A stretch of DNA of 7,648 bases, from positions 1-7,648 of the IMG/VR virus record IMGVR_UViG_2617270973_000013. One strand, written 5' to 3'. The position numbers and the translations under genes are program-made. Of the stretch, positions 4,474-7,648 are shown piece by piece (within the stretch, counting starts at the first letter, position 1; every line of letters starts with the position of its first letter). Under the pieces are notes generated by a model. The model saw only the letters and a program-made list of their open reading frames with translations, did no database searches and was not told the DNA's origin. The stretch is from a virus (taxonomy: Duplodnaviria; Heunggongvirae; Uroviricota; Caudoviricetes).

Positions 4474-5238
4474 ATGCATCGTATAGACACGAAAACCGCG
4501 CAGAAGGATAAGTTCGGCGCGGGTAAGAACGGTTTTACCCGTGGTAACCCCCAGACCGGCACACCTGCCACCGATCTGGATGATGACTACTTTGACATGT
4601 TGCAGGAAGAACTCTGCAGCGTGGTGGAGGCATCCGGTGCCAGCCTGGAGAAGGGGCGGCATGACCAGCTGCTTACCGCGCTTCGTGCGCTGCTGTTAAG
4701 CCGCAAGAATCCGTTTGGTGATATCAAATCGGATGGCACGGTGAAAACGGCTCTCGAAAACCTTGGTTTGGGAGAAGGTGCTCCAGCTATTGGCGTTCCG
4801 TTCTTCTGGCCGTCCGCCGCAATGCCAGATACCGTAATCGAAAGCTGGTCCGGCATGGTGTTTTTGAAGTTCAACGGCGCGAAATTCTCTGCCACTGATT
4901 ACCCTGTGCTGGCGAAAGTGTTTCCTTCGCTGGTATTACCTGAAGCCCGCGGTGATTTCATTCGTATCTGGGATGATGGTCGTGGTGTAGATAGTGGACG
5001 TGGATTACTTAGTACGCAGTCTGACCTGATGAAACAATTTACTTTGCAATACTACGGTCCTTCTGCTGGTACTGGAACAAGAACGGTTTTCGCCCTCCAG
5101 AGTAATGCGAACGGCATATATACGAGTGGTATTAGTCAGAATGATGGTAGTGGCACCGCTGCGGCTTTTAATGTACCAGGCGGCACCGAAACACGCCCAC
5201 GTAACATTGCATTCAACTTTTTAGTAAGGGCTAAATAA
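4474..5238 (+). CDS. Tail fibre protein (constant N-terminus Sc, residues 1-~97, fused to variable C-terminus Sv in the present orientation)
   Basis: 254-aa ORF. The N-terminus has a [16 protein letters not shown] motif resembling Mu S / P2 H N-termini (from memory). The C-terminal part ([10 protein letters not shown]...[15 protein letters not shown]) resembles a phage tail-collar / receptor-binding domain. The crossover site sits in-frame at codons 94-101 (LENLGLGE). Stop TAA 5236-5238 overlaps the tfa ATG (TAATG). Confidence 0.8.
4751..4776. repeat. Left crossover site (Hin/Gin-type, 12-2-12): CTCTCGAAAACC-TT-GGTTTGGGAGAA
   Basis: Both half-sites fit the TTnTCnnAAACC pattern recalled for hix/gix/cix sites. 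A perfect 14-bp inverted copy of 4763-4776 occurs at 6608-6621. The site lies inside the stf coding sequence. Confidence 0.8.
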
Positions 5239-5831
5239 TGAAACCTGTTTTTGATAAAAATGGGCTGGCTACAGTGCCGGGTGATATGCGTTGTTTTTAT
5301 TATGATGCAGTAACGTCTGAATATACTGGCTGGTCTGATGAATATATTAATACTGGTGTAAGTATGCCCGCCTGTTCCACTGGTATTGACCCGGGCGAAT
5401 ACATTCCGGGGAAAGTGGCAGTATTTACGGGTAAGGGATGGAGCCATGAAGAAGACCACCGCAATGAGACTGCTTACTCAATCGAAAATGGCGCAGCTGT
5501 TACAGTGGATTATATCGGTGCCATCAAAGACGGTTATGTCACGCTTTCACCGTTAACGCCATACGATAAATGGGATGGTGAGAAATGGGTGACAGATACT
5601 GAGGCACAGCATAGTGCCGCAGTAGACGCGGCAGAAGCACAGCGCCAGTCGCTGATTGATGCTGCAATGGCTTCCATCAGTCTGATTCAACTGAAATTGC
5701 AGGCCGGGCGGAAGCTGACGCAGGCAGAAACAACCCGACTTAACGCCGTGCTGGATTACATTGACGCGGTGACGGCAACAGATACCAGCACCGCGCCGGA
5801 TATCATCTGGCCTGAACAGCCGGAGGCGTAG
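5238..5831 (+). CDS. Tail fibre assembly chaperone (Tfa / Mu U-like)
   Basis: 197-aa ORF coupled to stf. The C-terminus (LDYIDAVTATDTSTAPDIIWPEQP) carries the conserved tail-fibre-assembly motif and an N-terminal FYYD motif. Confidence 0.8.
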   Translation: MKPVFDKNGLATVPGDMRCFYYDAVTSEYTGWSDEYINTGVSMPACSTGIDPGEYIPGKVAVFTGKGWSHEEDHRNETAYSIENGAAVTVDYIGAIKDGYVTLSPLTPYDKWDGEKWVTDTEAQHSAAVDAAEAQRQSLIDAAMASISLIQLKLQAGRKLTQAETTRLNAVLDYIDAVTATDTSTAPDIIWPEQPEA

Positions 5832-6243
5832 GCCATTCAATATCTGGAGCACTGGAAATATCAACCATTTCCAGTGCGTCCAGATAATCAAGCCATGAAT
5901 TATATTGCGCCAGTTCCTCACCTTTCAGACGACCAATAGCAGCCTTTCCTGGCCACTGCTTACTGTTAATATATTCATTAACTCGATTTATGAGTGCCTG
6001 TTTTTTTCGTTCCGCTTCTGACAGTTGTTCTTCATGAGTTAGCGGCGGTACGTCATCCCATGCAGGATAGCCATCATCACCCGCAACTCTCACCTTCCCT
6101 GGAGGTGGGGACAGGTACTTAATAAATATATCCTCATCAACTTCAACTCCATTATGAGGCCATAACCCAGACTCCTTATACTGACTTTCCAGAGTAAATG
6201 GGTAAAACATATTAGTTTTAGCATCGTAAAGATATTTACTCAT
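5803..6243 (-). CDS. Alternative tail fibre assembly chaperone (Tfa' / U'-like) inside the invertible segment
   Basis: Begins MSKYLYDAKTNMFYPF, a typical Tfa N-terminus, and ends with the conserved LDYLDALEMVDISSAPDIEWPTPP motif. Start ATG at 6243-6241 is preceded by AGGAAG and lies 1 nt after the Sv' stop (TAA at 6247-6245). The 24 extra upstream codons in the ORF track (to 6315) overlap the end of Sv' and are judged not to be the real start. Confidence 0.8.
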   Translation of the reverse strand: MSKYLYDAKTNMFYPFTLESQYKESGLWPHNGVEVDEDIFIKYLSPPPGKVRVAGDDGYPAWDDVPPLTHEEQLSEAERKKQALINRVNEYINSKQWPGKAAIGRLKGEELAQYNSWLDYLDALEMVDISSAPDIEWPTPPAVQAR

Positions 6244-6244
6244 T

Positions 6245-6621
6245 TTATCTTCCTGTAGCAAACCAGCGGCAACCAGCGACAGTTGGAACATTGAAGGATG
6301 GATTTCCTTTATCAAGAGATCCCAGGTTCTCTGCTATGACATTTGAGTTAGTCAATTTATAGAATTGCCATACTGACATTTTCCCTGCCACAGGAGCCTG
6401 GTCATGTTCATTAATAGAAATGACGGCTGTCGGAAATGGGATAGGAAAATTAATCAAAACTTCATTTGTTGTGGCCCCAGTTAGCCCCCATTGTTCAATA
6501 TAACCATCCGGGCTTCGCCTCCATCCCGTCGTTGTATCTCCCCCACACTCCCACGCTGACATATCAGGAATTTGGTTTTGCCCGTTACCCACATCCCGTT
6601 TTGCCGCTTCTCCCAAACCAA
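6245..6621 (-). CDS. Alternative tail fibre C-terminal cassette (Sv'), start-less; expressed only as an in-frame fusion to Sc after inversion
   Basis: - strand ORF with no ATG; the track's initial 'M' is a TTG at 6616-6614. Directly stitching the sequence after inversion at the crossover core gives ...ENLGLGE-AAKRDVGNGQ..., in frame with stf codons 1-98. It is immediately followed by tfa' in the stf-tfa arrangement. Confidence 0.75.
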
Positions 6622-6633
6622 CCTTTCAAATAT
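6608..6633. repeat. Right crossover site: TTCTCCCAAACC-AA-CCTTTCAAATAT (inner half canonical, outer half degenerate)
   Basis: Positions 6608-6621 are the exact reverse complement of 4763-4776. The core AA is the complement of the left core TT, as required for inversion. The site ends 59 bp upstream of the invertase ATG. Confidence 0.8.
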
Positions 6634-6660
6634 TTTTCTGAATCAGGTGATATTTCGCCT

Positions 6661-6687
6661 CTTCTCCTGTTTTTACAACAGGAGAAG
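6661..6687 (+). promoter_or_regulatory. Perfect 10-bp stem / 7-nt loop hairpin (CTTCTCCTGT-ttttaca-ACAGGAGAAG) whose 3' arm contains the invertase Shine-Dalgarno
   Basis: Inverted repeat read directly from the sequence. No U-tract follows on either strand, so it is not a canonical intrinsic terminator. It could equally be a palindromic protein-binding site. Confidence 0.4.
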
Positions 6688-6692
6688 CACTC

Positions 6693-7256
6693 ATGATTTA
6701 CGGGTATGTACGTGTATCAACAAATCATCAGGATACAGAGTTGCAACGTCTTGCACTTGAGTCAGTTGGCTGTGAGCGAATTTATGAAGAATATGCCAGT
6801 GGCAGAACAGCTAATCGCCCTGTGTTAAAGGAATTAATTACGGTGATGAAAAGTGGAGATGAGTTGATTGTCTGGAAGTTAGATCGGATAGGGAGAAATG
6901 TGCTGCATGCGCTATTGATGTTTCAAAATCTGCACGAAAAAGGTGTTAATTTTCGGAGTATTACAGATGGCGTAGACCTGAAAACAGCAAGTGGTCGCTA
7001 TAATTTCCGTAATATTCTTTCTGCTGCGCAGTATGAATCTGATTTGAATAGCGAGCGAACTTTAGCTGGTTTGGCTATTGCCAGATCCAAAGGCCGGATT
7101 GGTGGGCGTAGACCGAAGTTTAGCGACGAGCAGTGGCAACAGATGGGAGCGCTCATAGCGGCAGGGAAATCACGGCGTTATGTTGCACGTATCTATAACG
7201 TTGGGCTATCAACCCTATATAAACGATTTCCTGTTACTGGCATTCAAACGAAATAA
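6693..7256 (+). CDS. Serine recombinase, DNA invertase of the Hin/Gin/Cin/Pin family
   Basis: 187-aa ORF with N-terminal YGYVRVSTNHQDTELQ (catalytic Ser in the YVRVST motif), VWKLDRIGRN, and C-terminal GRIGGRRPK and helix-turn-helix-like region (RRYVARIYNVGLSTLYKR). Strong SD GGAG at 6681-6684, 8 nt before the ATG. It lies directly outside the right crossover site. Confidence 0.9.
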   Translation: MIYGYVRVSTNHQDTELQRLALESVGCERIYEEYASGRTANRPVLKELITVMKSGDELIVWKLDRIGRNVLHALLMFQNLHEKGVNFRSITDGVDLKTASGRYNFRNILSAAQYESDLNSERTLAGLAIARSKGRIGGRRPKFSDEQWQQMGALIAAGKSRRYVARIYNVGLSTLYKRFPVTGIQTK

Positions 7257-7399
7257 TTTAAAAGCAATTTAAAGAGTTATTTGTCTAATGTTGGAAGCCG
7301 CAGCCACGTCGTATGCAAGAACGTGCTGCGGCTGGCTGGCGAACTTTCGATAGTGCGAGTATTGAATGATTTCCAGCCGTTACCGATTTTACGTGTTAA

Positions 7400-7648
7400 T
7401 TAGTGAACAAACCACTCGTCAGCAGATTCCCAGGTATCTTTCAGAGTCTCCTGAACAAAAGTTTTTGCAGAATCCTTATCTGCGGTGCGTGTAACAGAAA
7501 GGCCATCGTTGCTGGTGGCTTTTACGATCACCTCTACATCGTCATAACGTTTACTGATGCGTCGGGTTAATTCTTCCTTTAACGCATCCACAGCACCGGT
7601 TGGCATTTTAGTCATTTTTTCTTTGGCTATGCAGATTTCAATACGCAT
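7400..7648 (-). CDS. DinI-family protein (DNA-damage-inducible protein I-like)
   Basis: 82-aa ORF; the N-terminus MRIEICIAK and C-terminus [17 protein letters not shown] closely resemble E. coli DinI as I recall it. The ATG lies exactly at the window end (7648-7646), so its promoter and any LexA box are outside the window. Confidence 0.7.

Follow-up and report, generated by a model that had tools for sequence, protein, structure and literature searches.

A leader hairpin over the ribosome-binding site of a prophage tail-fibre invertase gene and its putative role in translational control

Serine invertases of the Gin/Pin family set the rate at which tail fibres are flipped, and hence the host range, of temperate phages and prophages, and to our knowledge the control of invertase level has been little studied in comparison with the Fis/enhancer control of the recombination reaction. 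The locus described here raises the question of whether a hairpin that lies directly in front of such an invertase gene is formed in the mRNA, hides the ribosome-binding site and thereby holds the synthesis of the enzyme down, or whether the same palindrome serves some other purpose in DNA or RNA.

The invertible segment and the hairpin before the invertase gene

The window, i.e. the whole stretch of 7,648 nucleotides that was analysed, is the tail end of a Mu/SfV-like E. coli prophage, and a 99% identical copy of it lies beside dusA in E. coli strain CM2010-0578/1. The order of genes is baseplate genes, tail fibre, two assembly genes, an alternative C-terminus, a serine recombinase and a DinI-like gene (Table 1). 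A 20-nt inverted repeat (4758-4777 / 6607-6626, 90% complementary) marks both crossover sites, and the segment between the sites holds alternative tail-fibre C-termini together with the assembly genes. Judged by its sequence features, the arrangement at 4751-6633 is a classic Gin/Pin-type invertible tail-fibre segment, in a genomic context like that of Gin, Hin, Cin and Pin. The invertase matches Pfam families PF00239 (E = 4e-36) and PF02796 (E = 7e-12), and its start codon is fixed at 6693 because the N-terminus M-x-x-G-Y-x-R-V-S-T is conserved. The tail-fibre ORF that holds the left crossover site (L001:5933-6679, corresponding to window positions 4474..5220) is called 'integrase' in RefSeq, which looks like a misannotation.

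Table 1. Positions of the genes, crossover sites and leader elements in the window
Feature	Position	Strand	Sequence	Remarks
Tail-fibre gene	4474..5238			Contains left crossover site
Left crossover site, 26 bp	4751..4776		CTCTCGAAAACC TT GGTTTGGGAGAA	Within tail-fibre gene 4474..5238
Tail-fibre assembly gene 1	5238..5831	+		Caudo_TAP; convergent with assembly gene 2
Tail-fibre assembly gene 2	5803..6315	-		Caudo_TAP; convergent with assembly gene 1
Alternative tail-fibre C-terminus	6245..6616	-		Gp53-like_C; promoterless
Right crossover site, 26 bp	6608..6633		TTCTCCCAAACC AA CCTTTCAAATAT	Identified from inverted repeat and sequence
Upstream hairpin	6645..6660	+	AGGTGA-TATT-TCGCCT	Abuts Shine-Dalgarno hairpin directly; conserved in clade A
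Shine-Dalgarno hairpin, 5' arm	6661..6671	+	CTTCTCCTGTT	Contains anti-Shine-Dalgarno CTCC
Shine-Dalgarno hairpin, loop	6672..6676	+	TTTAC	Two positions variable among relatives
Shine-Dalgarno hairpin, 3' arm	6677..6687	+	AACAGGAGAAG	Shine-Dalgarno AGGAGA at 6680-6685
Spacer, hairpin to ATG, 5 nt	6688..6692	+	CACTC	Variable among relatives
Serine DNA invertase gene, 187 aa	6693..7256	+		Resolvase and HTH_7 domains
DinI-like gene				Downstream of invertase gene and convergent with it

Between the right crossover site and the invertase ATG lies a fixed leader of 59 nt, in which the hairpin is placed 27 nt outside the site on the side that does not invert; among relatives, the sequence upstream of the right crossover site differs whereas the leader is constant. 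Positions 6661-6687 read CTTCTCCTGT-TTTTACA-ACAGGAGAAG. An earlier note on this DNA had described a perfect 10-bp stem with a 7-nt loop that ends 5 nt before the invertase ATG and carries GGAG in its 3' arm, and this description is confirmed by the sequence, with the refinement that the minimum-free-energy fold also pairs T6671 with A6677, which makes it a perfect stem of 11 bp around a loop of 5 nt (-14.9 kcal/mol; z = -6.5 relative to 200 shuffles). The Shine-Dalgarno sequence, of which GGAG occupies 6681-6684, stands 7 nt before the ATG, and AGGAGA is predicted to form a duplex of -6.9 kcal/mol with the anti-Shine-Dalgarno sequence.

The hairpin also withstood the folding of the 5' UTR that the same note had proposed as a check, being the dominant feature in folds of both 81 nt and 161 nt with the Shine-Dalgarno sequence buried; the unpaired probability of the Shine-Dalgarno hexamer is about 0.000, compared with 0.32 on average for shuffled upstream sequence, and none of 60 shuffles was as low. 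A pairing of the start codon with 6716-6722, which appears in the 161-nt fold, was dismissed since it is not conserved in phi80-type coding sequences. By itself, a stem of 10-11 bp is just moderately unusual, because among 1000 dinucleotide-preserving shuffles of the 7.6-kb window (loop of 3-10 nt) a perfect stem of at least 10 bp was found somewhere in 6.3% and one of at least 11 bp in 1.8%; it is the placement exactly over the ribosome-binding site, together with conservation, that lifts the hairpin above chance. No Rfam match overlaps 6600-6700, even at E <= 5. The adjoining hairpin at 6645-6660 may be stacked coaxially on its Shine-Dalgarno neighbour or belong to a 5' structure.

Stable structures are present elsewhere in the window as well. 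The + strand hairpin at 5841-5887, in the middle of the invertible segment, is much larger (-28.1 kcal/mol, z = -8.8); its 19-bp stem, interrupted by a single bulge and closed by a loop of 7 nt, includes a perfect 11-bp core at 5849-5877, and it has no U-tract. It begins 10 nt past the stop codon of the + strand assembly gene, within coding sequence at the 3' end of the assembly gene that converges on it, and may serve as a terminator-like or 3'-end structure. Where the invertase and DinI-like genes converge, a further G+C-rich stem (13-14 bp, 7297-7336, -22 to -28 kcal/mol, z about -2.3) is probably a 3'-end hairpin that both genes share, and a weak, sub-threshold Rfam match to CssrB spans 7275-7330 (22 bits versus a gathering score of 76).

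Conservation and variation of invertase leaders

For the clade of invertases to which that of the window belongs (clade A, 78-100% identical), leader versions were obtained from a protein-based search of IMG/VR, from a DNA-pattern search and from the same pattern applied to metagenomes; the pattern constrained only GGAGA, a spacer of 6-8 nt and the first codons, and left the left arm free. All 22 distinct leader versions from clade A have the hairpin, and occlusion of the Shine-Dalgarno sequence exceeds the level of upstream shuffles in 17 of the 18 versions tested. Among the hosts of clade A are lambdoid phages (phi80, mEp237, HK225) and both Mu/SfV-like and other prophages. Of 5,426 complete E. 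coli genomes, about 600 have sequence matches to the 241-nt region around the hairpin, and about 150 have the leader in full. In the phi80 record, an identical sequence upstream of pinL is annotated as the inverted repeat 'IR3' without a stated function. The phi80 locus (L002, 2866-3652) has the right crossover site, the identical leader hairpin and pinL beside only a tail-collar pseudogene fragment, and is an invertase module without an intact invertible segment.

Variation within clade A is found in the 27 nt between crossover site and hairpin, in the loop and spacer positions marked in Table 1 and at synonymous sites. The ten inner pairs of the stem are essentially invariant in the alignment and the outermost pair of the arm varies, being U-A in 17 leader versions, C-G in 2 (the window included) and U.G in 1; a further outer pair beyond the perfect stem is either G.U or G-C. 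When the named structure is imposed on the clade-A alignment, 96.5% of cells are paired, as against 44-62% with the 3' partners slid by 1-3 columns. In one variant an inner pair was lost through a change of G to A and an outer G-C pair was gained. The upstream hairpin (6645-6660, GGYGA-NNNN-TCRCC) varies at its third pair, which is C-G in 15 versions, U.G in 4 and U-A in 1. Covariation statistics are modest, the variable pairs reflecting few independent evolutionary events, and 8 of the 12 pairs of the Shine-Dalgarno hairpin never vary in clade A and are uninformative in this respect; within these bounds, the substitutions suggest that pairing, and not just sequence, has been maintained in evolution. 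Because those eight pairs are invariant, most of the conservation of the hairpin is equally compatible with a site in DNA or RNA that is recognised by its sequence.

The comparison with the Gin, Cin and Pin leaders that the earlier note had called for gave a divided answer, with occlusion in e14 Pin and P1 Cin and none in Mu/D108 Gin. The invertases of e14 (pinE of K-12) and of a P2-like/Cartapus/Klebsiella clade are about 50-54% identical to that of the window and use the same crossover sequence, and at an equal distance from the crossover site their leaders carry a homologous hairpin of different sequence, typically ATCATCTCC-(13 nt)-GGGGGATGAT followed by C-ATG. It is the weaker of the two, at about -4 to -15 kcal/mol versus -15 kcal/mol for the perfect and much stronger hairpin of clade A. 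At the pair homologous to T6665-A6683, the e14/P2-like clade has U-A in 10 distinct rows, U.G in 10 and C-G in 8, and the Shine-Dalgarno sequence is still buried in variants that have a bulged U or that pair in a shifted register by recruiting the upstream GGCATC. A mixed-clade MAFFT alignment yielded no structure with RNAalifold, since the two clades have their arms in different registers, and counts on the named structure and folding of individual sequences were used in its place.

The P1 cin gene has an analogous 9-bp hairpin of unrelated sequence (GCUUGCUAU...AUAGUGAGC) over the annotated ribosome-binding site, with an unpaired probability of 0.003 for the Shine-Dalgarno sequence and 0 of 60 shuffles as low; the arrangement of the locus differs in that cixL is at the 3' end of cin, and an enhancer is annotated at +19 to +90. 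The gin genes of D108 and Mu start with GTG and, unlike the invertase gene of the window, have no Shine-Dalgarno hairpin (unpaired probability 0.67). The hairpin is also lacking at three Morganella/Kluyvera loci, the invertases of which are 68-71% identical to that of the window, and in approximately 75 distant serine-recombinase homologues of diverse genomic origin the Shine-Dalgarno sequence is not systematically occluded, which rules out a general property of serine-recombinase leaders. Given its absence from all three of these sets, occlusion is not intrinsic to the inversion system; it is a recurrent solution in this group of invertases, strongest in the clade of the window and not universal.

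Seven gut-metagenome contigs (L357, L360, L372, L376, L378, L400 and L428) contain, at about 55 nt upstream of the recombinase ATG, unrelated, AT-rich serine-recombinase leaders in which CCUUCU or CCUCC, about 25 nt upstream, is predicted to pair with the Shine-Dalgarno sequence GGAAGGAG. Recombinase leaders thus seem to offer a second, independent instance of an occluded Shine-Dalgarno sequence.

Strand, nature and transcription of the element

As regards the form in which the element acts, the substitutions themselves are asymmetric between the strands: U.G pairs are major alleles, and C.A variants occur only in rare leader versions. For instance, TCTCC/GGGGA is the commonest form in the e14/P2-like clade, and GGTGA/TCGCC is found in the two commonest leaders of clade A. 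As a U.G pair corresponds to a C.A mismatch on the - strand and is asymmetric in a DNA palindrome, its frequency argues for selection on the + strand RNA, and the compensatory and wobble changes as a whole are consistent with such an RNA. In addition, the three stem sequences (clade A, e14-like and P1 cin) have only the coverage of the Shine-Dalgarno sequence in common. The comparative data thus point to a + strand RNA structure.

A DNA palindrome may also be an operator for a dimeric protein, such as the invertase itself acting on a pseudo-crossover site and repressing its own gene, in the manner in which resolvase represses its own gene at res. The stem sequence is invariant in clade A, as would suit an operator, and the outer 7 nt of the arms (CTTCTCC / GGAGAAG) recur exactly at the outer end of the crossover half-site CTTCTCCCAAACC. 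However, the pairing with the Shine-Dalgarno sequence demands CTCC in any case, so that just 2-3 extra matching bases are left; the palindrome measures 25 bp and not 26 bp (12-2-12) and lacks the inner AAACC of the half-site; and the sister clade, which has the same crossover half-site, has the arms ATCATCTCC/GGGGGATGAT, in which U.G breaks the symmetry of the DNA and not the pairing of the RNA. An operator is on these grounds very unlikely. As a true crossover or binding site of the invertase (12-2-12, half-site TTCTCCCAAACC) the palindrome was rejected, since only the outer TTCTCC fits and the inner part reads TGTTTT versus CAAACC. A LexA (SOS) box, CTGT-N8-ACAG, was likewise rejected, as the window has CTGT-N7-ACAG (6667-6681), i.e. 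CTG-N9-CAG where N10 is needed; the e14-like clade does not have even the CTGT-N7-ACAG motif.

The transcripts that reach the hairpin may come from some distance. No terminator-like site was found on either strand in 6200-7648, and an intrinsic (Rho-independent) terminator at the hairpin itself was rejected because the tails, CACTCATGATT on the + strand and AGGCGAAATAT on the - strand, form no U-tract, which bears out the view of the earlier note that this is not a typical terminator. As no terminator-like site was seen on the + strand from the tail-fibre assembly gene up to the leader, late transcripts could extend into the latter. It is conceivable, then, that the hairpin acts by fold-back inhibition as an insulator, productive mRNA starting inside or after the 5' arm and only transcripts from upstream being silenced. 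This absence of a + strand terminator would be in keeping with such a role, as would the combination of a strong Shine-Dalgarno sequence with a near-absolute block, which suggests that some transcripts must escape. A weak promoter-like pair read by hand, TTCAAA (6625-6630) and GATATT (6649-6654) with a spacing of 18, would start transcription at about 6661, and the P1 annotation puts the -10 of P1cin at a position from which transcripts would begin at the base of the P1 hairpin.

Several observations speak against an internal start. The promoter scan of the leader found no convincing promoter and nothing at the hand-read pair, the -10 of which sits in the variable loop of the upstream hairpin and has C in place of its key last T in 5 of 20 leader versions; the pair was therefore rejected as a promoter, and a start at 6661 would in any case still include the whole 5' arm. 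The C-G, U.G and U-A variation at the third pair of the upstream hairpin suggests, in addition, that 6645-6660 belongs to the transcribed part of the leader and that RNA upstream of 6661 is under selection, which argues for a start further upstream. On this RNA-type covariation, transcripts would start upstream of 6645 and so include both arms, and we regard fold-back insulation as unlikely. The start of the e14 pinE leader was not found in the supplements of the Cappable-seq and SMRT-Cappable-seq papers.

It may also be asked whether the hairpin serves transcription or RNA stability, as a U-tract-less terminator or attenuator of transcripts from the invertible segment or as a stem-loop at the 5' terminus by which the invertase mRNA is protected from decay. 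Its stability and its place where two transcription units meet would suit the former, and the hand-read promoter would place it at the extreme 5' end of the mRNA as required by the latter. Such roles seem extremely improbable, as there is neither a U-tract on either strand nor a terminator call and as they leave unexplained why three different hairpin sequences overlap the Shine-Dalgarno sequence in so precise and conserved a manner.

Further features of the region were considered in turn. The + strand ORF 6466..6696 ends in a TGA that overlaps the invertase ATG (ATGA); translational coupling to this ORF was rejected, since TAA interrupts its frame in the other leader type that is most common, and the ATGA overlap only reflects the Ile codon. 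That other leader type has an in-frame upstream GTG-ATG, which is out of frame in the window. Matches to the promoter consensus are no more numerous than expected by chance. One at 6336-6365 (+) lies within the invertible segment and points toward the invertase gene, which would make transcription of the latter dependent on orientation, and another at 6720-6693 (-) lies in the first invertase codons and points back through the leader, which would give an antisense RNA.

Proposed translational control of the invertase and its parallels

The explanation that we consider reasonably probable is a cis-acting leader stem-loop that blocks translation of the invertase. The leader RNA would fold into two adjacent hairpins, the second of which would hide the ribosome-binding site: on transcription, the anti-Shine-Dalgarno sequence of the 5' arm would lock the ribosome-binding site into the 11-bp helix of -15 kcal/mol, to which 30S subunits would hardly be able to bind. 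The invertase that flips the tail fibres would consequently stay very low at any level of transcription that enters the leader, and since the block would also cover read-through from the tail-fibre operon, a burst of invertase during strong late transcription would be prevented. The structural part of the earlier reading, a buried Shine-Dalgarno sequence, stands on the folding and comparative data; for its remaining part we infer that the hairpin is present in translated mRNA, that translation is lowered and that the frequency of inversion is limited thereby.

At -15 kcal/mol the modelled block would be near-complete and not merely 'low'. As such a helix should cut initiation by many orders of magnitude, it is a puzzle how any invertase gets made, and the missing piece may be a start site that is internal, a factor that unmasks the site, or standby binding. 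Alternatively, an extremely rare opening of the stem may suffice for an enzyme that is needed in only a few molecules; this possibility was ranked below the simple damper model, as were models with a minority of transcripts that lack the 5' arm and models in which the stem is opened.

Among the models of stem opening, a conditional switch would have a trans-acting factor, such as an RNA-binding activator, an sRNA or a helicase, open the stem and couple tail-fibre switching to a signal. It would account for a near-consensus Shine-Dalgarno sequence that has been kept and not weakened, for a block too strong for passive leakiness and for a stem whose sequence itself, beyond its pairing, is invariant, as expected of a recognised element. 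However, the window offers no candidate factor and no complementary sequence, ACAGGAGAAG being matched at <=1 mismatch by only the two arms, and as the same leader is carried in lambdoid (phi80, mEp237, HK225), Mu/SfV-like and other prophage backgrounds, a phage-specific partner is improbable. Such a trans-acting factor is quite unlikely, and equally so is the broader version in which the switch would normally be fully off and be opened by an RNA-binding factor or sRNA, by processing or by a change of promoter, with host-range switching coupled to a signal and not purely stochastic.

The blocking stem-loop has parallels in other genes of mobile elements. Translation of IS200 tnpA is strongly repressed by a leader stem-loop in which a near-perfect Shine-Dalgarno sequence is sequestered, and it rises strongly on disruption of the lower stem (PMC4513863). 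The two cases are alike in having a cis stem-loop that buries a near-consensus Shine-Dalgarno sequence in the leader of a gene for a DNA-rearranging enzyme, and in that a potentially harmful recombinase is kept, or would be kept, at a very low level. They differ in that the IS200 enzyme is a transposase and not a serine invertase, and in that its stem-loop is about 70 nt long and acts together with an antisense sRNA and Hfq, whereas the hairpin of the window is a compact perfect stem of 27 nt known here without an antisense RNA.

For IS10 and IS50 transposases, fold-back inhibition is brought about by upstream sequence that pairs with the ribosome-binding site, so that transcripts from outside are not translated; the own promoter of IS10 starts inside the structure, and its own mRNA thus escapes. 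Read-through from the tail-fibre operon would be a plausible equivalent of the transcripts from outside, but an internal start as in IS10 is unsupported here, and the covariation of the upstream hairpin argues against one. A third parallel comes from the same phage world, in which the leader of the phage Mu mom gene has a translation-inhibiting stem that hides the translation start region and is opened by Com. The mom gene adjoins gin in Mu (D108 record); it is a different gene, and it has a dedicated activator in Com whereas no activator is evident for the hairpin of the window.

Leader hairpins that occlude a Shine-Dalgarno sequence are textbook knowledge, and the inverted repeat was already known from phi80 as the unexplained 'IR3'. 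A literature search, in which the older literature was covered only in part, found no report of translational control of gin, cin, pin or hin invertases, and as far as found this familiar class of mechanism is apparently undescribed for the Gin/Pin family; it may thus interest the specialist rather than surprise. If the near-absolute and conserved leader block is true, it would offer a simple account of low inversion rates and would insulate the invertase from strong late transcription; should it turn out to be conditional, phage phase variation would be seen to receive a regulatory input.
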